DNA of 36,478 nucleotides from Candidatus Thorarchaeota archaeon (GCA_016839445.1 JAEOUG010000096.1:1-36478); one strand, 5' to 3'; counted from the first letter of the stretch, positions 1,659 to 25,646 are shown. Program-made: numbers and translations. The notes: generated by a model not told the origin, from the sequence alone.

Positions 1659-2741
1659 ATGAGTCCTTCTCCCTTTGAGTGCAGAGTTGGTTTCCTGTGG
1701 AGCGAGCTTCTTGAATCATTCGACTTTGGAGCGAAGCACCCAATCCAGCCTGGGCGATTCAGGAGAATAAGGGACTTCTATCGCTCGTGCGGGTTTCTAG
1801 GTCTGCCAAACGTAAGTGTCGTGCAACCACGCCCCCTGACACAGAATGAGCTTGAAGAGATACACGCAGCGGACTATCTTGCAAAGGTGAGGGCAATCTC
1901 AGATAGCGGGGAAGGCGAGATTGACATTGACACTCCTGGCTTCAAGGGGATATTCGAGAATGCCAGTCTTACTTCAGGGGCCACCGTTAGCGGCATCCGG
2001 GCTGTGTTAGCAGGTGAGATTGACCACTTCGTTTCGCCAACGGGGGGTTTTCATCACGCCAAGTTCGCTCGTGGAGGAGGATTCTGCATCTTCAATGACG
2101 TAGCAGCCGGAGTATACGAACTGAAGAGGTCTGGGCTCCAGAGGATTCTGATTGCCGACTTCGATGTTCACCATGGAAACGGCACCCAGGAGTACTTCCT
2201 ATCAGACCCCGGAGTGATGCAGATCTCCTTCCACGAAAGCCCTGAATGGATGTATCCACACGATGGGTACATTGACGATATCGGCGAGGGGCCAGGAGCC
2301 GGCTACAACATCAACATGCCGTTTCCAATGGATTCAGCAGATGCCGTCTACAGGTACGCGTTCCAGGAGCTTGTGCCGCCTCTGGTTGACTTCTACGAGC
2401 CCGAGTTCATCATATTCCTTCCAGGCATCGATGCGCACTACAAAGACCGCCTAGCACACCTTGTCCTGACCACACATACAATCAGGTTCGTCGCTGAATG
2501 GATGCATCAGGCCGCGCACAGATATGCCTCTGGGCGGATGGGGGTTCTTGCAGGAGGCGGATATCATCCTGACTCCTTCCAGTGGGGTATGGGTGTCGTG
2601 ATGTCTGTTCTCTCTGGCCATGACTATGGTCCGCCACCTCAGAGTCCTCCCTTTGAGGACAATGAAGAGACCTGGAGTGAAGTCCGCGAGAACGTTGCTC
2701 GGGTGAAGGAACGAGTGTTCCCCCTGTTCGGCATCAACTAG
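1659..2741 (+). CDS. Zn-dependent histone deacetylase / AcuC family deacetylase
   Basis: HP, GGFHHA, GFCIFND, DFDVHHGNG, GIDAH and GGGY motifs are intact. Confidence 0.95.
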   Translation: MSPSPFECRVGFLWSELLESFDFGAKHPIQPGRFRRIRDFYRSCGFLGLPNVSVVQPRPLTQNELEEIHAADYLAKVRAISDSGEGEIDIDTPGFKGIFENASLTSGATVSGIRAVLAGEIDHFVSPTGGFHHAKFARGGGFCIFNDVAAGVYELKRSGLQRILIADFDVHHGNGTQEYFLSDPGVMQISFHESPEWMYPHDGYIDDIGEGPGAGYNINMPFPMDSADAVYRYAFQELVPPLVDFYEPEFIIFLPGIDAHYKDRLAHLVLTTHTIRFVAEWMHQAAHRYASGRMGVLAGGGYHPDSFQWGMGVVMSVLSGHDYGPPPQSPPFEDNEETWSEVRENVARVKERVFPLFGIN

Positions 2742-3361
2742 CCCACGAAGCGCTTGGCCAAATCGACAGCACTCATAGCGTCACTACCGTATGCATCCGC
2801 TCCAGTGTAGTCTACGATGCTCTGGTCGATGTCGCCTCCACCTATGATTACCTTCACCTTGTCCCTTAGGCCGGCGACTTTGAGGGCCTCAATGGTGTCC
2901 TTCATCACATCGTGAGTAGTGGTGATTAGGCCGCTGAGTGCAAGCAGTGGAGCGCCAGTCTCTCTGAGCTTCTCTATGAACCTGTCCGGAGGGACATCCT
3001 CTCCGAGGTCGTATACATCATAGCCATTAGACTTCAGGAAGGCTACCACGAGGTTCTTACCGATGTAGTGTATGTCCCCCTTGACAGTCCCTATGACTAT
3101 CTTTCCTTTCTCCTCTTTCTGCTGGCTCTTAAGGAGGGCTGGCTCTAGGACCTCCATAGCTCTCTTGAAGATGTCTGCTGACATCACAAGCTCCACGAGG
3201 AAATACTCTCCCGTCGAAAACCTCTCTCCAACGATATCCATGCCATCCTTGAGTTCTTGCAGAACCTGAAACGGATCGGTTCCTTCTGACAGCTTCTCTT
3301 CCAGGAATCGCTTCACGTCCTTGTCCTCAAGATCCGCCATAGCGGTGGTCAGCTCTGACAT
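2738..3361 (-). CDS. Corrinoid (B12-binding) methyl-carrier protein, MtaC/MttC-like
   Basis: Cap domain (GMDIVGERFSTGEYFL), DIHYIGKNLV (DxHxxG), LSGL and IIGGG. Start placed at ATG 3361 after a GAGGT SD; the track start is 3424. Confidence 0.93.
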   Translation of the reverse strand: MSELTTAMADLEDKDVKRFLEEKLSEGTDPFQVLQELKDGMDIVGERFSTGEYFLVELVMSADIFKRAMEVLEPALLKSQQKEEKGKIVIGTVKGDIHYIGKNLVVAFLKSNGYDVYDLGEDVPPDRFIEKLRETGAPLLALSGLITTTHDVMKDTIEALKVAGLRDKVKVIIGGGDIDQSIVDYTGADAYGSDAMSAVDLAKRFVG

Positions 3362-3433
3362 CTGTAGTGAAACCTCTTGTTTCAGTTCTACGGGGGTTTC
3401 CATCATATATCTTTCATTGTCCAACGCTTGGGT

Positions 3434-4339
3434 CTACCCGATCTTGTATCTTGGATGCGACTTGTCGGGCCTGATTCCCTCTTCCAACAGAATCCCCGAG
3501 AGTGCGACATCTATCATTGCCACGGAAGGAAAGGTCACAGGCGCATGTTTGATTGGTCCATAGAGGACGAAGTCAGCTCCCAGTGCTACTGACATGAGGG
3601 CTGATCCGACTTGTGCAGGACGTTTTGCCTCTTTGCCGAACTTCGGAACGAGACCTGACCACATATTCACAGCATTGTGGGCTCCACAACCTGCGGGCCA
3701 ACCAGTTTCGTTCTTCACAAGATCAATTGACTTGCACGCGAGGCCAAGAGTAAGAAGGTCGACTACCCCAGTATCTATCATGACGTTCCCAATCCCCGCA
3801 GCGCTTGCTCTGGCAATGAGGGATTTCGCCAGCTCGAATCTCTTTGAGTAAGAGGCCATTGCAGAACTACTGAACGCGAGAAGCATTGCGGTCTCCACGC
3901 CCGCCTCGACGTATCGGAGAATCGTGTCCTCGTCGTCGTCGGGTCCAATAGAATTGAGAATGATCCTGTCGAGAATGCCCATCTCCTTGGCTGTTCTCAG
4001 TCCTGCAAGGTTGACTTCCAGAACACCGGACCCATCGATCATGAGTGGCATCTGGGTGGTCTCTCCAAGATATCGGATGTAGTTCTCCATCGCCTCAGGA
4101 GTTTCCGCAACCACATCCAGAACACTGGGTACACCCGTCTTCTCCGAGGTTTCCTCAAGCCTCCGGATAGCCTCTCGAGTGCTCTCTCTATCGAACTTGC
4201 CGGTCTTGGAATCCAGAACTAGTCGGTCCTTATTGAAGAACACTGACCCAATCATGACGGTTGGGGACCGGCCTGGTCTCCCCCCGATGTTGATTTGGCC
4301 CACTCTGATTGTCTTCTGCTCAACGCCATAGTCGTGCAT
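3434..4339 (-). CDS. mtrH: MtrH/MtgA-like corrinoid:tetrahydro(methano)pterin methyltransferase
   Basis: IGGRPG..PTVMIGSVF, ILNSI, MIDTGV, PAGCGAHNA and GADFVLYGPI motifs. Likely start MHDYG at 4339. Confidence 0.88.
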   Translation of the reverse strand: MHDYGVEQKTIRVGQINIGGRPGRSPTVMIGSVFFNKDRLVLDSKTGKFDRESTREAIRRLEETSEKTGVPSVLDVVAETPEAMENYIRYLGETTQMPLMIDGSGVLEVNLAGLRTAKEMGILDRIILNSIGPDDDEDTILRYVEAGVETAMLLAFSSSAMASYSKRFELAKSLIARASAAGIGNVMIDTGVVDLLTLGLACKSIDLVKNETGWPAGCGAHNAVNMWSGLVPKFGKEAKRPAQVGSALMSVALGADFVLYGPIKHAPVTFPSVAMIDVALSGILLEEGIRPDKSHPRYKIG

Positions 4340-4613
4340 TCTAGCAATCCGCCTTCTCATCTGACGTAGACTCCTTCCCCCTTTAAGAACGAAGTTATGG
4401 GCGTTGCGACTGATTGGGGCGTGCAGAAGCCACATCAACACCCTCGTCGAGTGTGCGTGCTCTCGAACGAGCGACTGAGTGCCGAAAATCCCATGTTTCC
4501 GAGCAGTTGCGTGATACAAGATTCGTTCAAATGACACTTATTATTGTCCCATGCATAATACAATGGTTGATTTAACGGAAGCAACCACAGAATCAAGGCG
4601 GGAATGAAACGTC

Positions 4614-6071
4614 ATGCCCCGGCAACAGAAGGCTCCGAAGAAGAAGACCCCCAGTGAGTCCTCTCCAGACATAGACCTGTACTCCCACAGTGACGAGATT
4701 CTCCACGCAGTTCTAGAGGAGTCTCAGACGGGCATTGCCATAGTTGGGGATGACTACCGACTGGAATACATCAACGAAGAAGGATGCAGGATATTTGGTG
4801 GGTCTAGAGGAGATCTTGTCGGGCACGACTTCCGTGAGTTCTTGAAGGATGACATAAAACAGATTGTTGCTGAACGCTACGAGAAGAGGCGTCTCGGTGA
4901 ACACGTTCCTACCTCTTACCCGTTCAAGCTTGTCCGAAAGGATGGAGAGATGCGCACTGTCGAGGGAAAGGTGTCCGTCGTTCGAGGGACGAACGGCTCA
5001 CTGAAGACAATTGCTCACTTCCTTGACATCACTCACATCGAGCTTGGCCAAATGCTTCTCGAGGAGTCACAAAGACGCTACCGCATTCTTGTTGAAACCA
5101 TGAATGACGGGCTGGCAATCGACGATGAAAACGGGAATCTGACGTACGCAAATGAAGCCTTCTTGAAGATGCTTGGATATGAATTCGAGGAGATTCTCGG
5201 CAAGCCCTGGGTGGAATTGACTTCGGGGCTCGAGCACAATGGTGTGATGGAGAAGATATCTGACAGGAAGAAGGGCCTCTCCGAAAAATACGAGCTCTCT
5301 TGGAAGAGCAAAACAGGCGAGATTATTCCGACGATCATATCCGCAACTCCACTCCATGACAACGATGGTAGGTTCCAGGGGACTTTCGCTGTGGTGACTG
5401 AGATATCCGCACAGAAGGATGCGGAGGAAGCAGTTCAGTTCTATCTCGACCTACTCTCTCATGACATAGCCAATCAGCTACAGGTCATAATGACCAGCAG
5501 CGGGTTGCTGGAGGAGGAGGTCCCAACATCCTATATCTCGGAGGCGAGAAAGGACATCTCAGACGCTGTTGAGAGGTGCAATCGGCTCATAACCAAAGTG
5601 AAGCGTGCAGCACAGAGCAGATACGTTCCTCTGACCAATGTCAATCTCATACCTGTCCTCAAGGAGAAGATCAAGATTCTCGAGCGCGTGTTTGACGCGA
5701 AAGTACACTTGGATGGAATTGGCAAGAGTGCTATGGTAGTGGCTGATGTACTCCTGGGCGAGATGATATGGAATCTACTTGAGAATGCGGCTCGGCACAA
5801 TCCCAAGGAACAGAAAGAGCTCTGGATTGAGGGCAAGAGCAAAGGGGGCGTCTACCAGCTCTCTGTAGCCGATGACGGACCTGGCTTGAGCGAATCTCGG
5901 AAGGCCGCTCTGTTCACGGAGAGAAAGCATGGCGGCGGGGTTGGCTTGACACTGGTCGGTCAGATGGTGCGCAAGTATGGCGGGTCGATTGAGGTTGACG
6001 ACAGAGTGAAGGGCAAGCCCAGCCTGGGGGCGAAGTTCACCATCACTCTTCGAAAGGCCAAGAAGTCCTGA
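4614..6071 (+). CDS. Cytoplasmic PAS-PAS sensor histidine kinase
   Basis: Two PAS/PAC repeats; H-box LLSHDIANQL, N-box NLLENA, DDGPG and GGVGL; no transmembrane helix. Confidence 0.93.
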   Translation: MPRQQKAPKKKTPSESSPDIDLYSHSDEILHAVLEESQTGIAIVGDDYRLEYINEEGCRIFGGSRGDLVGHDFREFLKDDIKQIVAERYEKRRLGEHVPTSYPFKLVRKDGEMRTVEGKVSVVRGTNGSLKTIAHFLDITHIELGQMLLEESQRRYRILVETMNDGLAIDDENGNLTYANEAFLKMLGYEFEEILGKPWVELTSGLEHNGVMEKISDRKKGLSEKYELSWKSKTGEIIPTIISATPLHDNDGRFQGTFAVVTEISAQKDAEEAVQFYLDLLSHDIANQLQVIMTSSGLLEEEVPTSYISEARKDISDAVERCNRLITKVKRAAQSRYVPLTNVNLIPVLKEKIKILERVFDAKVHLDGIGKSAMVVADVLLGEMIWNLLENAARHNPKEQKELWIEGKSKGGVYQLSVADDGPGLSESRKAALFTERKHGGGVGLTLVGQMVRKYGGSIEVDDRVKGKPSLGAKFTITLRKAKKS

Positions 6072-17004: not shown

Positions 17005-17057
17005 CATGCTTGCTCCTCTCCGCGAGCCGCAATCATATCCATTGGTGGGATGAAGAA

Positions 17058-20000
17058 GTGAGTGATGAAGCAGTGACAGAAAGCATGTCCATACTAAGGG
17101 ACACTCTGGGAGTAACCGAAGTTGAAACTCGTGTTCTACTTCCGATATTCCTTGGTGGGAACATGACCGCCGGAGGGATTTCGCTCCTATCCGGAGAAAA
17201 GATGACCTCGGTCAAGAGGGCGCTGAGCCGTCTTCAGACCAAGGGCCTAATCATAGAGATCGAGGGACGCGTTCCCGTCTACCAAGCTCTTCCACCCGGT
17301 CTTTCTCTTGGCGAGCTTCTTTCGGAGAAGCTTGAGGACATTGACCGTGTGATGAAGGAAGCCGAAACCATTGTGAAGGACCGAGACGAGCAGCTAGACG
17401 CTACTCTTGAAGCTGTTATGCAAGCCCAGTCGAAGGCACTTGACCATCTACAGCAGTCTTTGGACAAGTATGAGGAGAAGGTACTGAGTCTCGTGCAGTC
17501 CCAGATTGAGGGTGTGGTCAAAACCTCCACAGGAGTCATGGACAAGATCTCCGGAGACTTGGAGAAATCCATGCATCAATTGGACAGCTCCATTGACGAT
17601 CAACTAGGCACGAAGATGAAGGAGCTGCAAGTCGAGCTTGACAAGGGTCAGACCACGCTCAGCAAAGACATGAAGAAGATTGGCAAGGACTTCGACAATT
17701 GGCTGAAGAAGGAGCGTACCACAGTACTTGCCTCTACGCAGGAATTCGAGAAGAAGTCTCGCGAGGTTGTTGTCGCTGCCCGCGATGCTGTCACTGCCGC
17801 CCTTACGGAGTCCTCAGACTCGCTCAGGTCGATTGCCACTGGGGTTTCCGAGTCACTCACTTCTATGGCTTCAACTGCATCCGACGAGGGTCTGGAAGTC
17901 CTGAACGGCGTATCCAAAGACATCACAGATTTCATCACTCACTTGGACGCCGAGCTGGCTGAATCCTACGTCAATGGACAGAAAGCGATTGATGAAGTGA
18001 TTACTCAGGCAGGTGAGATCACTGCCGAATATGGTGAGTTCGCGAGAACGAAGATTGCGGCGGCTCGCGAGATTGCTGGCTCGATTGGTGAGCTTGCGGA
18101 CTCCTGGAAGGAGGAGGTTGGGGGCTTCATGGACGTGGCATCGCAGTCCGTGACCTCCCAGTTGACACAGGTTGCGAATACAGACACGAACTACCTGGAG
18201 ATGATGAAGACCTCCTTGACATCTCACATCGACAAGGTGAACTCACAGCTTGACACCGAATATGAGGAGCTAGGGAGCCTGGCCACAACTCTGGGAAGCG
18301 ACTGCGAGACCACCCTTGGCGAGACACGGGCACTTCTGCTTGAACTGCTGCAAGGCCAAGCAGAGTCAGAAACGGAAGCATGTGACCTAGCCACGAAAGG
18401 TCTCCATGACGAGCTTGACGGTTGGGTTGCGGGCACAGTGTCTTCCATCGAGAAAACACTGAACAGCGCCGCCACGGAAATAGGTGCCATTCTTGATACA
18501 GAATCAAATGAGATGAATGAGATTGCAGATGCAATGAGCAGTCGTCTCAAATCTGCTTTCGGAACGGTGATCAAGTCCACGCAGACGAAGAACGAGGGTC
18601 TCCTTACTGCAGTCAAGACAGCAGCTAGCGAGTTTGAGTCCAGCATTGGGGAGCGACTGGCAGAGATCATTGACAATTTCTCAGGTGCCACCCAGAAGCA
18701 GGTCAAAGACTCAAAGATGCATTATGAAGGATTGCGCGACAGGCTTGACAAGCGCATGGCGAGGTCTGTGGCCAACATCACATCTCACTCTGAGAGAGTC
18801 CAGAGGGAGGTCGAGACTACAATCACTGAGCAAGTCTCGAGGATGGACCAGCACACCGAGGCCATCAAAGCCGAGTTCCACACTCACCTAGAAGACATCA
18901 CGAAGCAGTTCGTCACCTTGACCCAAGGGCTCGAAGCCACCTTCAACGGACTGGTTTCAAGCCAGACTGTCGAAGCTCGGGACCTAATCACATCCACTCA
19001 CTCTGAGTTCAAGAGTGCTCTCAGAAACGAGATGGGCAGCCTCAAGGAGGAATCCACCAAGCTCCAGCAGGAGTATGCTACCGACCTTGGAATGAAGATC
19101 GATGAGGTCACATCTTCTGTTGAAGCCGCGAAGCGTGCATTGGATGAGCTTGCTCTAGAGAAGAGGCACGAGATTGCCCTACGAATGGCCACGACACTAA
19201 GCGATCTTGACGAGGCAGTCAGAAGTACCGAGACTAGTCTGATTGAGATGGAATCGGGAACTGTCAGGTCCTTCATAGACAACTTGGCTCAGGTTTCACA
19301 GGAGTTCAATACCACTGTAACAGGTGCCCGTGAATCCATCTCTGAGAAGCTTGAAGGCGCAGGCTCTGCGGTGAAGAGCGCTCTGGAGAAGAGCTCGGAA
19401 AATGCGAAGACCGCTGCGGACTCATTCGTGGGTTCTCAGAGCGATCTCAAGCAACGGTTTTTGGCAGATACGAGCAAGAAGATGAACAGGCTTGCCACAC
19501 GCCGCGTGAAAGCCGCAGGAGAAAAGATCGAGGCCTTCAGAACGGAGCTCTCGAACCGTGAAACCGAGGGTGTGAAGGACCGGGGGAAGGCCAAGACCGA
19601 GGTTGTCAGTGCCGTGGAGAAGCGTAGATCCGAAGTCGTCAAGGCTTTCGATTCGGCTTCTGAATGGGTGGACTCCACAATGGCAAACGTTGCCACTTCA
19701 TTAGACCAGTTGGGCACCAAGCTGAAGAATGAGCTGACCCTGATAGAGAGAGGTCTTCAGAAGGCCGCTGAGGAGTCTGGAGGCTCCATACAGGAACGTG
19801 GAGAATCTGACATTGAGAGGCTGCAGGAGATCAATGTGGCCCTCCTCAAGAGCGCTGAGAACATGATAAAGGTGAAGCTCGACGAGTTTGCCGACAAGTG
19901 TGCCTCGTCACTCTCAAGAGGAAACGAAGGTCTTGTTTCCATGCCGACAAGGATCTCAGAGCAAGTTGGCGACATTCAGGAGGGCATAGATGAGAAGACC

Positions 20001-20948
20001 ACTCAGAGCTACAGCGATGTAGCTGCCGGGCTCTCTGGCAAGTTCACAGAATATGAACGGGCGGCAGAATCTGCCACAGAGGACTTCCGAAACCTCCTCG
20101 AGTCTGTCTCAATCTCGGTGACTGAGAAGCGCGACGAATCTGTTGACCTGATGGAGAAGAACATCGTAGCGGCCAACCAGCTCGCCTCGAGGAAGTTCGA
20201 AGCAATTGGACTTGAGTTCAAGACGAAGCTCAGTAGTGAAACAGCAGCGCTTCTCGGAAGCACACAGTCCAACATCGCAACCAAGAGCCTTCGTATCACA
20301 GAGGCCGTCACTGATGCCACTAATCGGACAAACGAAGACACGTCTGCGCTATCACAGTCACGAATCGAGGCACTGACATCCTTTGGTGAAAAATCCGAAA
20401 AGGCCGTGCGCAAGTGGTCGGTTGATCAGAAGAAGCAGACTGCGAAGCTCTCGGATGGAATCGTGTCGACTCTGAGTGAGGTGAAGAATACAACCAAGAG
20501 TGCTGCAGATTCGGTCTCGGCCATTCACAGACTCAGCAAGACTCTACTCAAGGCTCCGCCGAAGCGGACTTGGTATCTATCTGGCCTAGAAGAGGCATGT
20601 GCGCATGTTCTCGACATGGTCGGCAGAGCAGAGGAGTCGATAGTGGTTTCGGTACCGAACATGGAGTGCTTGGACCTCAAGCAGCTAGGAAAGGCTAAGG
20701 ATGTCCCAAGAAGGATTCTCATCTTGCCTGATACCGATGAGGCGCAGGAGACTGAGGGTGTGGATGGCTGGCGTGTCTGGCGGACCAAGACCCCTATGCT
20801 TCTTGCAGTCTTAGACGACAAGGAATTGCTCATCGGTGGCTCAAGTGAGGGAGAGAGCCCAATGGTGATTGTGTCAGAAGAGGACTCATACCTCCGTCTT
20901 TACCACGACATCCTTGGACCCCGACTGGTCGCAGGTCGCATCCGCTGA
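17058..20948 (+). CDS. Giant TrmB-like protein: N-terminal wHTH, ~1100-aa helical insert, C-terminal PLD-like effector domain
   Basis: LGVTEVETRV..MTAGGIS..VKRALSRLQTKGLI..GRVPVYQALPP; C-terminal MVGRAEESIVVSVP ... AVLDDKELLIG. Start is either GTG 17058 or 17010. Confidence 0.82.
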   Translation: MSDEAVTESMSILRDTLGVTEVETRVLLPIFLGGNMTAGGISLLSGEKMTSVKRALSRLQTKGLIIEIEGRVPVYQALPPGLSLGELLSEKLEDIDRVMKEAETIVKDRDEQLDATLEAVMQAQSKALDHLQQSLDKYEEKVLSLVQSQIEGVVKTSTGVMDKISGDLEKSMHQLDSSIDDQLGTKMKELQVELDKGQTTLSKDMKKIGKDFDNWLKKERTTVLASTQEFEKKSREVVVAARDAVTAALTESSDSLRSIATGVSESLTSMASTASDEGLEVLNGVSKDITDFITHLDAELAESYVNGQKAIDEVITQAGEITAEYGEFARTKIAAAREIAGSIGELADSWKEEVGGFMDVASQSVTSQLTQVANTDTNYLEMMKTSLTSHIDKVNSQLDTEYEELGSLATTLGSDCETTLGETRALLLELLQGQAESETEACDLATKGLHDELDGWVAGTVSSIEKTLNSAATEIGAILDTESNEMNEIADAMSSRLKSAFGTVIKSTQTKNEGLLTAVKTAASEFESSIGERLAEIIDNFSGATQKQVKDSKMHYEGLRDRLDKRMARSVANITSHSERVQREVETTITEQVSRMDQHTEAIKAEFHTHLEDITKQFVTLTQGLEATFNGLVSSQTVEARDLITSTHSEFKSALRNEMGSLKEESTKLQQEYATDLGMKIDEVTSSVEAAKRALDELALEKRHEIALRMATTLSDLDEAVRSTETSLIEMESGTVRSFIDNLAQVSQEFNTTVTGARESISEKLEGAGSAVKSALEKSSENAKTAADSFVGSQSDLKQRFLADTSKKMNRLATRRVKAAGEKIEAFRTELSNRETEGVKDRGKAKTEVVSAVEKRRSEVVKAFDSASEWVDSTMANVATSLDQLGTKLKNELTLIERGLQKAAEESGGSIQERGESDIERLQEINVALLKSAENMIKVKLDEFADKCASSLSRGNEGLVSMPTRISEQVGDIQEGIDEKTTQSYSDVAAGLSGKFTEYERAAESATEDFRNLLESVSISVTEKRDESVDLMEKNIVAANQLASRKFEAIGLEFKTKLSSETAALLGSTQSNIATKSLRITEAVTDATNRTNEDTSALSQSRIEALTSFGEKSEKAVRKWSVDQKKQTAKLSDGIVSTLSEVKNTTKSAADSVSAIHRLSKTLLKAPPKRTWYLSGLEEACAHVLDMVGRAEESIVVSVPNMECLDLKQLGKAKDVPRRILILPDTDEAQETEGVDGWRVWRTKTPMLLAVLDDKELLIGGSSEGESPMVIVSEEDSYLRLYHDILGPRLVAGRIR

Positions 20949-21424: not shown

Positions 21425-21790
21425 TCATCGACTGTAGTTGTCATTGCGATTGGCGACCGGTGCGCCACAATATGCACAGAACTCCGCTCTCTCAGGAATC
21501 GGTTCACCACACACTGAGCAGATATCAGTGGATCTGATGTATCTGGGCAGTTCTCCTGTGACATCTCTGGACATCTCTGGCTGAATCACACAGAATCTTA
21601 GCGACACGACCAAAATGACAAGTGTTAGAAGAATTGAAACAACTGCTGCAGTTCCTCCTGTTCCCAGAAAGACGAAGGGAAACACAAAGAAGATGCCTCC
21701 ACCCTCGCCGCCTGAGATCATGGCAAGCAATACTACGCCAATCATTACGAAAGCAAAGCCTGCAGCGATGACATACTCGGACCGATTCAA
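21425..21790 (-). CDS. Small membrane protein (DUF131-like) with a C-terminal zinc ribbon
   Basis: Hydrophobic helices around GGGIFFVFPFVFLG; CSVCG-x9-CAYCG. Confidence 0.8.
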   Translation of the reverse strand: MNRSEYVIAAGFAFVMIGVVLLAMISGGEGGGIFFVFPFVFLGTGGTAAVVSILLTLVILVVSLRFCVIQPEMSRDVTGELPRYIRSTDICSVCGEPIPERAEFCAYCGAPVANRNDNYSR

Positions 21791-21811: not shown

Positions 21812-22165
21812 TCAAAGCATGTTTCTTTCTTTGAGTTGCCGAACGATATTCTGGTACTTCGTGTCATCGGAAATCATATCGTTCACTTGAGCCTCTAGCT
21901 GGTGGGTGCCAGGGAGCAGCTTCACGCTCACCTCGCTATCGGGGAACACTTCCTCGAGTTTGTGTCTGATAAGGATACCAATGAGTCCGCCCATTGGACA
22001 ATAGGGTACAGTAGGTTTGAACTGCACATTGATTGTGCTGTCTGCGATTTCGATGAACTCCTCCTTGACAATCCCCATTCTCGGGTCAGTGATTGAGATC
22101 GGATGCTCTGGGTCCATCACCGGCGCCAGGGCCTGAAAAACCTCAGTCCTCGTTGTCATTGGCAT
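21812..22165 (-). CDS. MIP18/Cia2 (DUF59) Fe-S assembly protein
   Basis: DPEHPISI, FKPTVPYCPMGGLIG and PGTH motifs. Confidence 0.88.
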   Translation of the reverse strand: MPMTTRTEVFQALAPVMDPEHPISITDPRMGIVKEEFIEIADSTINVQFKPTVPYCPMGGLIGILIRHKLEEVFPDSEVSVKLLPGTHQLEAQVNDMISDDTKYQNIVRQLKERNML

Positions 22166-22296
22166 CTCCTGACGACCCCGCCTTCTGGGGGCTTAATAAT
22201 CTATGCTTGCAGATGACAGAAACTCATGACACAAGACATATGAGCAGATACCCCCCCTCCACGTCTATTCCGATTAGTGGGATGGGTGTATCACCA

Positions 22297-22749
22297 TTGT
22301 CAAAGAAACGCGCCAAGTCAAGATACCTATTCAAGATTACTGTCCTGGGCCCCGACGATGCTCTTCTGGAGTCCGTCTTGTCAAACTTCAATGACCCAGT
22401 GGTTTCGGTTGATGGGATACGCATCGGGTCCACCGATCTGGATCTTGACTCCTCTGAGGTTCATGCGGTATTCATGTCACCTCGCCATAGCGCCCTCGAC
22501 ATTCTGCTTGCCCTCACATTCAGAGGTGCGAGCGGGGCAGTCATTGTCCTGAAAGAGGCCGATCCTCAAATCGAGGCTCTCTACAGAAACGAGGTTCGAG
22601 AGAACCTTGGAGCAAACGTTCCCACACGGACCGTCGTTATTGACTCCGAGCTTGACAAGTTCAAGCAGACCGAGATTCACCACCTCTTCGATGAGGTAAT
22701 CAGTGAGATTCTTGAGCAGCGGAAGAAGGGCCAGAAGAAGAAGAAATGA
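22297..22749 (+). CDS. Rab/Ras-like small GTPase homologue with degenerate G-motifs
   Basis: YLFKITVLG, FRGASGAVIV and EIHHLFDEVISEIL match the Rab scaffold; no GKS/T, DxxG or NKxD. Start is TTG 22297 or ATG 22282. Confidence 0.7.
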   Translation: MSKKRAKSRYLFKITVLGPDDALLESVLSNFNDPVVSVDGIRIGSTDLDLDSSEVHAVFMSPRHSALDILLALTFRGASGAVIVLKEADPQIEALYRNEVRENLGANVPTRTVVIDSELDKFKQTEIHHLFDEVISEILEQRKKGQKKKK

Positions 22750-22802: not shown

Positions 22803-23735
22803 ATGGTGTCAGTGGTGACAGAAGACGACGGCAGGTCTGACGACTACTGGATGGGCGTCAGGGACGCACTCAGAATGGTTGACTCCTTCCTGAAATGGAG
22901 ACAGAAGAACACGAGCCGAGCGAAGACCCTAGAGGACTTCATCCATGATGGTCTCATTGCAGCAGCAAAGAGGTGTGAGTCATGCCTCAGCGAGAAGCTT
23001 GGCGTGAGATTCGATTCACAGGAGCCGCCCACAGAACCCGACGAACTGCCATCCGACTTTGAATCTACTCCAACCACTCTGACAGATGCAGCTGTAGATG
23101 CCCTCTCTGAGTCGCCACCTGAAGAGGCAACATCCTATGAAGATGAAATACCCGCGGAAACCGAGATCCCAGAAGAGGGGATGACTGTCGACAGTGTGGA
23201 GAGGACCACAGATGAGCTACTGGAAGATGTCGACATTGAGGGGCCCGCAAGGGACTTCACCTCGGATTTCGAGCTTGTAGAGCCTTCACCTCTCGTGATC
23301 GACGAGTCTGAGGAGTCTGTTGAACCCGACGAGAGCGCTTGGATGACTGAGGACGAAGAGGATGATGAGCCAGAAGAAGCGCAGGCACCAGCCTCATTCA
23401 CTTGGGCCGAGTACGAGGAAGCTGTGACTCCATCGGAGGAGACCGCTGAGGAAGAGGAGGAGGAACTTGAGCAAGACGATGAACCGGATTTCCTTCCTGA
23501 AGAGCCTCCCGATGTCTGGAATCCGTATGACGAGCCATCAATCTCTGACGAGGAGCTGAGCAGGGAAACTCAGGATGAGCCGATACCTGACGCTGATACT
23601 CTCGACGATGTAGAGGCCGGCGAGGATATTGAAGAGGCTTCCGCAGCTCCCCCACCTCCACCCCCTCCTCCCGAGAGTGACGAGGACGAGGAGGAACGCA
23701 AGAGGAGGGCCCGAAGGCTATTCTTCGGTGCCTAA
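22803..23735 (+). CDS. Acidic intrinsically disordered protein with folded N-terminal domain, polyproline tract and basic/aromatic C-terminal helix
   Basis: N-terminal YWMGVRDALRMV..CESC; about 220 aa rich in D/E/P; APPPPPPPPE; EEERKRRARRLFFGA. Confidence 0.85.
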   Translation: MVSVVTEDDGRSDDYWMGVRDALRMVDSFLKWRQKNTSRAKTLEDFIHDGLIAAAKRCESCLSEKLGVRFDSQEPPTEPDELPSDFESTPTTLTDAAVDALSESPPEEATSYEDEIPAETEIPEEGMTVDSVERTTDELLEDVDIEGPARDFTSDFELVEPSPLVIDESEESVEPDESAWMTEDEEDDEPEEAQAPASFTWAEYEEAVTPSEETAEEEEEELEQDDEPDFLPEEPPDVWNPYDEPSISDEELSRETQDEPIPDADTLDDVEAGEDIEEASAAPPPPPPPPESDEDEEERKRRARRLFFGA

Positions 23736-24763
23736 TCCTGGGAGTCAACTATTCTCCTGTACAACCTGATTGCGTGGTCCGGAGAGGCAACTCCCTTCAC
23801 AATGGCGTTTCCACCCTGCATCAGTGTGACTCGAGATCCATCTTCAAAGGTCACACTCAAAGCTCTCTTACCACCTCTGGCGGCTAGGCTCTTGTCCAGA
23901 TTTGTGCGTATACTGTCAAGATCTAGTTTCTCTCCTTCAGCAGGCGTTACGTTGTAGTTCTTTGAGCAGAGCAGTGTGGCTGTTATCTCTGAAGGAGAAT
24001 CTGATACGAGGGTCTGTGGTGAAGAGCATTCAGGGCAGCCCTCTGCCCTTCCTATGTCAAATACCTCAAACGAAAGCGTCGCTGTTTCGATCGCCATCAG
24101 ACGGTTCTGCAAATGTGGCGTCTTTCCAGTGGCAATCCTAAGTGCTTCATCGACCTGTACTGATGCAGCTATTGATAGAAGTGTTGGAGACACGCCTACA
24201 TTGGCGCACGTGTTCTCGGGGTTGTCCTGCGCATCTCCCATGACACAACTAAGACAACCGGTCTCACCAGGGATGAATGTACTTAGATTGGCGTAGTATT
24301 CAACAGCTCCCGCGAAGATGTACGGCACCGAAAGGGCAAGGCTGGCCTTATTCAGAGCTCTCCTCGCCTGAAACGTGTCTAGTCCATCTACGATGATGTC
24401 TGTACCTCTGAGAATGGGCGTCGCGTTTCTCTCAGTTATTGACGCACACACAGGCTCATACTCTACATTGGGATTCATGAGCTCCAAGTTCTCAGCTGCA
24501 GCCTCGGCCTTCGGCCTTCCTATGTCCCTCGTGTTATAGACGGTCTGCCTCTGGATGTTGGACAACTCAACAATGTCCCTGTCGACAATGAGAATTCTGC
24601 CAAACCCTATTGCAGCCAGCAGTCTAAGTGCTGGACTCCCGAGTCCCCCTGCGCCAACCACTGCGACAGAAGTAGCCATAATGGACTCCATATCTTCCTC
24701 GCTGATGTCTCTCAGTGCAAGCATTCTGGAGTAACGGTCTCGCAAGTCATCAGTCAGTTTCAT
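23732..24763 (-). CDS. ThiF/MoeB/UbaA E1-like adenylyltransferase with a C-terminal extension
   Basis: RYSR, GAGGLG, DRDIVELSNIQRQ, CLSC, TCANVG and CPEC. Likely start MKLTD at 24763. Confidence 0.92.
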   Translation of the reverse strand: MKLTDDLRDRYSRMLALRDISEEDMESIMATSVAVVGAGGLGSPALRLLAAIGFGRILIVDRDIVELSNIQRQTVYNTRDIGRPKAEAAAENLELMNPNVEYEPVCASITERNATPILRGTDIIVDGLDTFQARRALNKASLALSVPYIFAGAVEYYANLSTFIPGETGCLSCVMGDAQDNPENTCANVGVSPTLLSIAASVQVDEALRIATGKTPHLQNRLMAIETATLSFEVFDIGRAEGCPECSSPQTLVSDSPSEITATLLCSKNYNVTPAEGEKLDLDSIRTNLDKSLAARGGKRALSVTFEDGSRVTLMQGGNAIVKGVASPDHAIRLYRRIVDSQD

Positions 24764-24824
24764 CGCTCTAGCTCCTAGGAGATGTGGAGTTTCACTTAAA
24801 GCCTTGGACATCAGAATGATTGCC

Positions 24825-25646
24825 ATGCCAGAGAAGGTCCATGTTGCAGTGGCAGTCAAGAGAACACCGAGGGAAGCTCTGATGACCGCCCTGGGATTCC
24901 TGCCTGATCCTCTTTCCAAAGGAGCCTCCGCCCAGAGAGTTGTTGTCAAGCCTTCGATATACGATCCTCGCCTCATTGGCAACACGGACCTTGAGATGGC
25001 ACGAGCTGTCGTAGGCCTGTTCAGGAAAGCAATGCAGATCTGTCTAGTTGAGAGCGATAATCCACTTCGTACATCAGAAGAAGCCTTCGAGATGACTGGA
25101 TACAGTACCTTGGCAGATGAGCGCGTTGAACTAGTGAACCTCTCACAAGCGGAGCTCCGCGAAGTTCAGTTTCTTGGGAATCATTTCGGAAAGAGAGAAA
25201 TGCCCTCGGTGCTACATGGGGCCAGACTGCTGCTCAATCTTGCCACAATGAAGGCCGAGCCTGGGGTCACCTCTGTTGGCGCAGGCGTGAAGAACCTCTT
25301 TGGACTCCTCCCCGAGCGAGACAAGAGCATCTACCACTCCACCATAGACTCGGTCCTTGTTGATTTGCTTGCATGCTACCGCCCCGACCTTACCATCATC
25401 GACCTCACGAACCCGGTCATTGGAAAGAGAGAGGCTGGTGTTTCGCGGCATCTTGGTGGCGTCATTGTCGGAGCTGACCCATTAGCGGTCGATGCTATCT
25501 GTGCTGACCTTCTGGGCGTTGACCCCCTCGAAGTGCCATTCCTGAGAATGGCATATGAGAGAGGACTTGGAGAAATCCTCCTGGACCGAATAAGTATCCT
25601 TGGAACTGATCATCAGAAGGAACGGCTGTTTCAGTTCTTCCACTAG
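24825..25646 (+). CDS. DUF362 family protein
   Basis: VVVKP, VESD, KNLFGLLP, PDLTIID, DPLAVD and AYERGLG. Confidence 0.85.
   Translation: MPEKVHVAVAVKRTPREALMTALGFLPDPLSKGASAQRVVVKPSIYDPRLIGNTDLEMARAVVGLFRKAMQICLVESDNPLRTSEEAFEMTGYSTLADERVELVNLSQAELREVQFLGNHFGKREMPSVLHGARLLLNLATMKAEPGVTSVGAGVKNLFGLLPERDKSIYHSTIDSVLVDLLACYRPDLTIIDLTNPVIGKREAGVSRHLGGVIVGADPLAVDAICADLLGVDPLEVPFLRMAYERGLGEILLDRISILGTDHQKERLFQFFH

Follow-up and report, generated by a model that had tools for sequence, protein, structure and literature searches.

In a 36,478-nucleotide stretch of DNA from Candidatus Thorarchaeota archaeon (GCA_016839445.1 JAEOUG010000096.1:1-36478; here called the window), positions 22297..22749 of the + strand, stop codon included, encode a 150-amino-acid (aa) protein that is a truncated Ras-superfamily G-domain by homology and predicted fold. 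As judged from alignments and the predicted structure, the nucleotide-binding elements G1, G2, G3, G4 and G5 are all gone from it. We consider it probable, at roughly 60%, that the protein represents an old, Asgard-specific pseudo-GTPase family whose members would act as constitutive docking modules with electrostatic tail tethers. The coding sequence is supported by the open reading frame (ORF), a database gene call, the N-termini of orthologs and purifying selection.

A predicted G-domain without nucleotide-binding motifs

Searched against the PDB as a single sequence, the 150-aa protein matched a Candida Rab11-like protein (5ub8, E 0.0095). A profile built from an alignment of 41 family members (A2) found Ypt32/Rab11 as its best match (E 1.5e-7), and Rab or Ypt proteins accounted for 60 of the 60 matches listed. 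The AlphaFold2 model computed on the same alignment (predicted local distance difference test, pLDDT, 87.7; predicted template modeling score, pTM, 0.83) places the elements in the order b1 a1 b2 b3 a2 b4 a3 b5, followed by one long terminal helix, giving five strands and four helices compared with six and five in Ras-type domains. Foldseek searches of the PDB with this model returned almost exclusively Rab/Ypt proteins among the matches listed, with one Rac (Ypt32 at 4.8e-7; template modeling (TM) score 0.6-0.7), and a probability of 1.0 for Rab11, Ypt32, Rab1, Rab23 and Rab8. VIA-align against structure representatives ranked Rab23 first (Z 15.0, root-mean-square deviation 2.5 Å, 138 residues aligned), followed by Ypt32 (Z 14.6), Sec4 (Z 14.5), other Rabs and MglA (Z 12.7). 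About 30 Rab23 residues were left unaligned, consistent with the missing strand and helix. We assign the truncated core to residues 10-139 (22324..22713, + strand). Of the Rab-specific sequence blocks (RabF type), only the Y(K/R)GA.G block and the hydrophobic patterns of b1 and b2 are kept, the blocks of the switch regions having been replaced.

Pfam and NCBIfam searches of the protein returned no significant family. We dismissed as noise a Pfam match to Roadblock/LC7 (PF03259; E 0.16, 12.2 bits against a cutoff of 23), the predicted fold being a G-domain, and likewise an NCBIfam MBL-fold match (E 0.095). ESM Atlas returned the protein's own Thorarchaeota cluster and then GTPase-like clusters at 0.87-0.91, which we treat as leads only.

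The elements that contact nucleotide in a small GTPase are replaced or deleted one after another. A hidden Markov model (HMM) alignment places GPDDxLLE column-for-column on the Ypt32 P-loop GDSGVGKS, so that Lys becomes Leu and Ser becomes Glu; this G1 remnant is GPDDALLES (residues 18-26; 22348..22374, + strand), and its G18 and P19 are invariant across the family. Switch I is five residues shorter in the profile alignment, and the gap removes the Thr-bearing segment (G2). At the place of G3 and switch II, MSPRH stands instead of DxxGQ (residues 60-64; 22474..22488, + strand); the family form MSPxH aligns on DTAGQ, with M, P and H invariant among Thorarchaeota members. IDSELD aligns on GNKSDL (G4). 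Finally, the sixth strand and the G5 (SAK) loop are absent from the AlphaFold2 model, which, being one strand and one helix short of a Ras-type domain, indicates that G5 is lost.

We extended this comparison to 132 retrieved relatives (P0002-P0133, P0002 being the window protein). GP[D/E/N][D/E] occupies the P-loop place in 127 of them, the remaining 5 being N-terminally truncated fragments, and GxxxxGK[S/T] occurs in none. Ten GK[ST] tripeptides were found, apparently in basic N-tails (for example at the KKRGKSKYLFKIT start of P0051), and [NT]KxD appears twice, both times within a basic tail. The genome itself provides an internal control: it holds at least 25 small-GTPase-like loci, and its 12 best canonical small-GTPase paralogs all have intact G1, G3 and G4.

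GPN-loop GTPases (PF03029) combine a canonical Walker A motif with a separate GPN loop between G2 and G3. We considered this family owing to the GP[D/N] motif and an ESM Atlas match scoring 0.90 (a lead only), and rejected it: the 150-aa protein has no Walker A, its GPDD lies at the P-loop position itself, and Pfam gave no PF03029 match.

Since every nucleotide-contacting element is replaced or deleted, we infer that the protein very probably neither binds nor hydrolyses GTP and would be a class i pseudoGTPase. Proteins of this class are described in PMC12490416 and PMC10211241 as G-domain folds without G motifs that are nucleotide-free and act as protein-protein docking modules; a G-domain fold without nucleotide-binding motifs is what the sequence and the predicted structure show here. 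A different reading is that of an atypical active or nucleotide-locked G protein with a non-canonical mode of binding, either to a nucleotide or to some other phosphate ligand. PMC10211241 describes the N-terminal pseudoGTPase domain of p190RhoGAP as binding GTP without hydrolysis, and the invariant polar residues D21/D39, R42, H64, R97, N98, E99 and R101 (P0002 numbering) could line a pocket. However, with Leu and Glu for the G1 Lys and Ser/Thr, two acidic residues and a Pro in the phosphate-wrapping loop, and neither NKxD, which confers guanine specificity, nor any of the G5 element present, we regard such binding as very improbable.

The degenerate motifs are conserved

A word-indexed search found 170 homologs at E <=0.01, of which the 120 listed are 60-99% identical; they are unnamed or "hypothetical" apart from one JGI label, and the closest named ones are labelled Candidatus Thorarchaeota. 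An exhaustive search of 1.8 billion cluster representatives yielded only 14 matches, so the family is narrow. Within Thorarchaeota the family alignment shows invariant G-P-D, V-D-G-I-R-I, M-x-P-x-H and Y-R-N-E-x-R, and the most invariant segments are the former switch II/a2 (MSPxHSALDILL), b2 (VDGIRI) and a3 (YRNE.RENLG). For 27 coding sequences from related genomes, excluding pairs saturated at synonymous sites (dS >=1.5), the Nei-Gojobori ratio of nonsynonymous to synonymous substitution rates (dN/dS) had a median of 0.071 and never exceeded 0.227 (25 of 351 pairs, with dS <1.5). Compared locus by locus with the window copy, the pseudo-GTPase is 59-72% identical and the adjacent DUF59 protein 59-70%, whereas the four other neighbours mostly fall at 23-54%, including the downstream neighbour (mostly 35-50%), the GNAT acetyltransferase (37-45%) and a ThiF-type enzyme (38-54%). 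The pseudo-GTPase is thus at least as conserved as its five neighbours in the same loci.

The number of homologs, the invariance of the degenerate motifs and the dN/dS of about 0.07 together argue for a conserved design and not for decay. A decaying pseudogene or chance ORF might be suspected from the missing catalytic motifs and the lack of a Pfam match. We count it as already refuted by the 170 homologs, the strong purifying selection and the confidently predicted fold; moreover, the frame is free of internal stops in the large majority of matches listed, and the degenerate motifs are themselves invariant. In one genome (G348, L014 1486-2004), the ortholog's frame is intact and has Ile where others start M-T-P, without an ATG, GTG or TTG.

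These results also bear on the sequence-only reading of this locus, which had described a Rab-like scaffold without G1, G3 and G4 and had quoted the strings SKKRAKSR, YLFKITVLGPDDALLES, VDGIRIGSTDLDLDSSEVHAVFMSPRH, TFRGASGAVIV and RKKGQKKKK. All five strings are present, the scaffold is recovered by profile and structure searches, and the three motifs are lost as described. That reading would have fallen with a fold other than a G-domain or with intact motifs in orthologs; AlphaFold2, Foldseek and VIA-align all give a G-domain, no relative retains the P-loop signature, and the gene is under purifying selection.

We next surveyed 400 genomes of the phylum, grouped in archaeal families numbered f1, f2 and so on. 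The gene is single-copy in its own genome. Strong matches were present in 74 of 85 f1 genomes, in the one f2 genome (1/1) and in all three matching f30 genomes (3/3), where two tandem paralogs of about 147 aa each carry GPND and GPDD versions of the P-loop remnant (L033 3995-5144; L032 3986-5136). The f30 pair sits between a D-2-hydroxyacid-dehydrogenase-like gene and a ribosomal-protein-L15e-like gene (names read from sequence). More diverged relatives in f19 (271 aa), f17 (190 aa) and f16 (333 aa) have GPND, GTSD or GPRE at the P-loop place; the switch-I deletion is shared by them, except in f16, which keeps a longer switch-I region, and the C-end is often basic. A cluster mate of the f17 relative is labelled Candidatus Helarchaeota. 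In all, at least four Asgard families besides that of the window, Helarchaeota among them, hold diverged relatives with such defects. Searched with the family profile, proteins of 362-2000 aa included no fused form at E <=1e-5, lengths of about 297-361 aa lying outside the length windows; the longer relatives just named (271 and 333 aa) came from the whole-genome search.

Outside the pseudo-GTPase clade, the best matches were a group of about 180 aa in f22 (E down to 9e-12), whose member P0150 (182 aa, labelled a Lokiarchaeota GTP-binding protein) has all motifs intact. Because the same defects recur in the diverged relatives while P0150, the nearest GTPase inspected outside the clade, is intact, the motif loss is old and shared.

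Several features of these relatives may be recorded here. The longer f19 and f17 proteins (L034 3611-4426; L035 3995-4567; L036 3791-4372) share a conserved C-terminal extension that runs from an aromatic-Y/K-[IV]-D-x-x-G motif through G-x-P-L-F to a basic end. The gene that follows on the downstream side in L034 codes for another low-complexity, Pro-rich protein, with no BLAST relationship to the downstream neighbour of the window. The closest canonical GTPase (182 aa, motifs intact) lies in a Lokiarchaeota-labelled genome (L037 1043-2438), where its strand also carries a 70-aa ORF and the gene of a V4R-domain protein; the latter matches Pfam V4R and DUF2507 above cutoff, and the adjoining ORF reads as TATA-binding-protein-like.

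Polybasic tails flank an acidic core

The core is framed by two basic tails. The N-terminal one is MSKKRAKSR (residues 1-9, net +5; 22297..22323, + strand), in a part of the model where pLDDT falls to 69 over the first 10 residues, and the C-terminal one is EQRKKGQKKKK (residues 140-150, net +6; 22714..22746, + strand), which contains no Cys. Charges were counted in the 122 family members whose core is complete. Of these, 113 have an N-tail of +3 or more and 104 such a C-tail; 98 combine the two, and 119 have one or the other or both. The core has a net charge of -5 or lower in 118 of the 122, with a family median of -11 and -12 in the window protein. The C-tail ranges from 0 to 47 residues with a net charge of up to +23, and in many orthologs it is lysine-rich and of low complexity. 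Its charge is kept and its sequence is not. Where the C-tail is not basic, the N-tail tends to be stronger. None of the 12 best canonical paralogs in the window's own genome has a polybasic tail.

The sequence-only reading had noted basic ends without a CAAX box and had called the tail "K-Ras-style". Both ends are basic as described, and no CAAX box follows the C-terminal stretch. The comparison with K-Ras holds for the polybasic part; the farnesylated CAAX Cys of K-Ras4B has no counterpart in the family. With Cys in only 1 of 122 tails, the tail is polybasic yet not K-Ras-like in the strict, prenylated sense, and the term is imprecise. That reading also did not include the switch-I deletion, the loss of a strand and a helix that removes G5, the acidic core, or the acidic, Pro-rich neighbour described below.

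The tails of ribosomal and chromatin proteins bind nucleic acid, and the 150-aa protein might likewise be associated with nucleic acid or the ribosome, its lysine-rich tails binding RNA or DNA and its G-like core serving as a structural adaptor. The length and charge of the C-tails in many orthologs fit this idea. So do two gene contexts: the f2 gene shares 4 bases with a zinc-ribbon gene, after which comes one for a GNAT acetyltransferase, and in f30 the tandem copies adjoin the L15e-like gene. The strongly acidic core, in contrast, disfavours contact with nucleic acid, Pfam and NCBIfam searches revealed no nucleic-acid-binding domain, the zinc-ribbon neighbour is a small membrane protein as judged by a transmembrane segment read from its sequence, and the flanking genes vary between families. 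We therefore think it unlikely that the tails bind nucleic acid, or that the protein as a whole works in this way.

A conserved acidic neighbour

The next gene downstream (22803..23735, + strand) begins 53 bases after the pseudo-GTPase gene and encodes a 310-aa protein that we consider a candidate partner on the basis of synteny, two alignments (A3 and A5), a structural model and composition. Pfam and NCBIfam searches of this protein gave no match, and ESM Atlas returned nothing usable for its N-terminal domain. The N-terminus is modeled with confidence as a helical hairpin (residues 9-66), a region of about 65 aa with the motif Y-W-x-G-V-x-D-x-L. There follow a disordered region of about 210 residues (39% Asp+Glu, net -80, 11% Pro) that holds a few short stretches of conserved motif, then eight Pro in a row, and lastly a nearly invariant C-end that turns from acidic to basic, E-E-R-R-R-R-A-R-R-L-F-F-G-x (RRLFFGA here). 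We considered an analogy between this C-end and the amphipathic membrane helix of MinD/FtsA-like proteins and set it aside as a lead only, its hydrophobic moment of 0.59 being reached by 29% of shuffles.

Of 33 other f1 loci examined, 31 have the neighbour as the very next gene after the pseudo-GTPase gene, in the same orientation. The two exceptions are a contig end (L010) and a TnpB-like insertion directly after the pseudo-GTPase gene (L014). In the latter genome (G348), a 451-aa TnpB-like gene occupies 2060-3415 and the usual neighbour is found on another contig. The f2 gene order differs, the neighbour being adjacent but divergent, with the 4-base overlap with the zinc-ribbon gene on the pseudo-GTPase side. 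A profile of the hairpin matched the same 74 of 85 f1 genomes as the pseudo-GTPase, and also f2, f3 and 18 of 19 f14 genomes; f30, f19, f17 and f16 gave no match. Loci with homologs of the neighbour family are L002-L031, L039-L042 and L055-L059, in f1, f2, f3 and f14.

In three f14 loci, a neighbour homolog of the same architecture, ending K-R-R-T-F-F-F, adjoins genes for a thioredoxin, for an Arf-family GTPase (E 7e-16) and for a protein with a weak Roadblock match (E 0.0086, below the Pfam cutoff). These three genes lie on one strand, convergent to the neighbour homolog (L055 4749-6289; L056 5848-7298; L059 4753-6228); in L056 a TnpB-like gene is inserted between the trio and the homolog. 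Thus, the neighbour family accompanies G-domain genes in two contexts.

Complex predictions pairing the pseudo-GTPase with neighbour residues 1-75 or 270-310 gave ipSAE values of 0.02 and 0.01, respectively, with the conserved motifs at about 150-165 and 198-210 left out; these values speak neither for nor against an interaction. In an RNA-library run (X16), two short contigs were identical to parts of the neighbour gene (22904-23102 and 23279-23462) and none lay on the pseudo-GTPase gene; contigs from an RNA library do not establish transcription, and missing target cover carries no meaning.

A proposed docking module with electrostatic tethers

We propose that the 150-aa protein consists of one truncated G-domain, derived from the Rab/Ras-like small GTPases of which Asgard archaea have many, and that it would work as a fixed, constitutive protein-docking module instead of a switch. 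Its binding face would comprise the former switch II/a2, b2 and a3, where the most invariant segments lie. Electrostatic attraction between its two flexible polybasic tails, which lack Cys, and a polyanionic surface would hold the module in place; the candidates for this surface are anionic membrane lipids and the acidic disordered region of the downstream protein, the conserved acidic, Pro-rich neighbour offering an alternative target for basic tails. Binding to membrane lipids, which the sequence-only reading proposed, is suggested by charge and is possible though less likely than not; engagement of the neighbour's acidic region, which is compatible with lipid binding, is slightly more doubtful still. 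A more ambitious reading, for which the chances seem low, places the window's family, as the branch with the best conservation, in an old clade of truncated, nucleotide-free G-domains that extends across the Asgard archaea and comprises Thorarchaeota, Helarchaeota and at least three further families, and makes its partnership with the neighbour a nucleotide-independent organiser at the membrane or cytoskeleton.

Several observations weigh against the docking and tethering model. Outside f1 and f2 the two protein families are not co-distributed: f14 (18 of 19 genomes) and f3 have the neighbour family without a strong pseudo-GTPase match, and f30, f19, f17 and f16 have pseudo-GTPase relatives without a match to the neighbour. 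Both genes are missing from one and the same set of 11 f1 genomes, with completeness values of 62-93%. For adjacent genes in incomplete genomes, joint loss cannot be told from assembly gaps, and the shared absences follow as readily from adjacency as from co-evolution. The synteny, kept within one archaeal family, partly reflects mere relatedness. The tails could equally serve in nucleic-acid binding.

The protein might instead be a decoy or regulatory subunit in the canonical small-GTPase network, a permanently "locked" competitor and not a charge-tethered scaffold, either pairing with a real GTPase or occupying a Roadblock/longin-type GTPase-activating protein (GAP), a guanine nucleotide exchange factor (GEF) or an effector. 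Such a network is at hand, given the many small-GTPase-like loci of the genome and the many Roadblock and longin proteins that PMC10933270 describes in Asgard genomes; the neighbour homolog of f14 stands beside a Roadblock-like gene and an Arf-family GTPase; and the most invariant residues belong to the former switch II, the interswitch and a3, surfaces usually recognised by partners of GTPases. On the other side, no Roadblock, longin or GTPase gene is adjacent in the f1, f2, f30, f19 and f17 loci, and the five-residue shortening affects switch I, with which most GAPs and effectors make contact. This alternative overlaps with the docking module proposed here, and in its distinct form we judge it unlikely, though less so than the other alternatives.

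Of the "eukaryotic signature proteins" in Asgard archaea, small GTPases are some of the best known, and they have so far been discussed as working switches. The literature searched describes pseudoGTPases for eukaryotes and in passing for bacteria, and none for archaea; it contains no archaeal or Asgard pseudoGTPase and no polybasic-tailed Asgard G-domain, the supplementary paralog alignment of PMC10933270 not being covered. A single-copy, strongly selected, family-wide Thorarchaeota pseudoGTPase with relatives in other Asgard lineages would show that the GTPase repertoire of these archaea diversified beyond switching. If the Asgard-wide reading were true, the conversion from switch to scaffold seen in CENP-M and AAGAB would already have happened in the archaeal relatives of eukaryotes. 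The 150-aa protein is small, looks soluble and lends itself to testing; together with its candidate partner it offers a handle on the docking targets of Asgard G-domain proteins, and is of interest to Asgard cell biology and GTPase evolution, the function of the family being inferred.

Gene start, promoter region and surrounding genes

The open frame on the + strand extends over 22093..22749 and ends in TGA (22747-22749). The database gene call for the 150-aa protein (P0002) begins at TTG 22297, the start also given by the earlier reading, with GGTG 8 bases 5' of it; other in-frame starts are ATG 22282 and ATG 22240. Orthologs begin 8-15 residues ahead of the YLFKIT strand in the family alignment, which favours TTG 22297 or ATG 22282, and from either start the protein has a short basic N-terminal tail. 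Direct reading of the sequence suggests a possible archaeal TATA-like box, TTAATAAT (22193..22200, + strand), within the intergenic region 22166-22296 that the pseudo-GTPase gene shares with the divergent DUF59 gene.

On the upstream side, in divergent orientation, stand genes for a DUF59/FeS-assembly protein, for a small zinc-ribbon protein (21425-21790) and for a GNAT acetyltransferase; the neighbour gene is followed by one for a ThiF-type enzyme. The zinc-ribbon protein has a hydrophobic N-terminal half, read as a membrane segment from sequence, and Pfam shows the zinc ribbon alone. The ThiF-type gene (23732-24985, - strand) is listed with a GTG start that adds about 74 residues beyond the Pfam match, and its real start is probably a Met near 24763. 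In one genome (G368; one scaffold, 77% complete, with N gaps), the ThiF ortholog lies in a putative molybdopterin-synthesis cluster and the pseudo-GTPase/neighbour pair was not found nearby; MoeA, MoaB, MoaC, MoaE and MoaA-like ORFs were read from sequence around the ortholog (L061 5995-7026). This context suggests a MoeB-like role for the ThiF-type enzyme and an incidental adjacency to the pair.

Elsewhere in the window, a gene at 17010-20945 (+ strand) encodes a 1312-aa coiled-coil protein with an N-terminal TrmB-type helix-turn-helix domain and apolipoprotein-like repeats; its f2 counterpart has 1027 aa (L031 5206-8289, - strand), and in f1 and f2 alike the large coiled-coil gene adjoins the block of GNAT, zinc-ribbon and pseudo-GTPase genes. 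An MtrH-family methyltransferase gene adjoins a gene for a B12-binding corrinoid protein, the two forming a methyl-transfer pair (2738-4537, - strand), and a PAS histidine-kinase-like gene comes next (4614-6071).

Relation to known G proteins

With the Rab/Ypt proteins that it resembles most (Ypt32/Rab11, Rab23, Rab1, Rab8 and Sec4), the 150-aa protein shares the G-domain fold, the b1 pattern YLFKI..(I/V)G, the block Y(K/R)GA.G.(I/V)(I/V)V after switch II, and the layout of a3 and the terminal helix. It differs from them in lacking G1-G5, one strand, one helix, five residues of switch I and the C-terminal prenylation Cys, and in combining an acidic core with polybasic stretches at both ends. 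As these defining motifs were looked for and are absent, we regard the protein as a descendant of the Rab family and of working small GTPases and not as a member of either. Lokiarchaeota P0150 shares FVFKITVIG, FYKGSKAAIIV and CGNIP with the pseudo-GTPase family; unlike that family, P0150 and the 12 best paralogs of the window's own genome keep GxxxxGKT, DxxG, NKxD and, in most, SAK, and have no polybasic tail.

Polybasic membrane-targeting tails are found in small GTPases such as K-Ras4B and the CAAX-less Rit/Rin and RGK proteins. In those proteins, as here, a Lys/Arg cluster stands at the C-terminal end directly after the last G-domain helix. The 150-aa protein differs from K-Ras4B in having neither a Cys nor a lipid anchor, and its family differs from all of them in adding a second, N-terminal polybasic cluster and in the widely varying length of the C-tail.

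Thor-Rab (PDB 7EZB) comes from the same phylum and superfamily and, like the 150-aa protein, has no prenylation Cys (PMC10933270). That structural study of Thorarchaeota Rab, Roadblock and TRAPPC3 presents Thor-Rab as canonical and nucleotide-binding, with GDP and GTP-gamma-S bound in its crystals. Thor-Rab was produced in E. coli, and heterologous localisation has been reported for Asgard Arf proteins (PMC11914678).

CENP-M, AAGAB/Irc6 and the p190 domains were not among the matches listed in the PDB profile, Foldseek and VIA-align searches, a result that does not rule out a relationship. From the eukaryotic class i pseudoGTPases, the window protein differs in being archaeal, in standing alone at 150 aa, in its truncation after b5 and in its polybasic tails, its nucleotide-free state being predicted. 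By analogy, it probably works as do the class i pseudoGTPases CENP-M, the AAGAB/Irc6 psGD and p190RhoGAP pG1/pG2.

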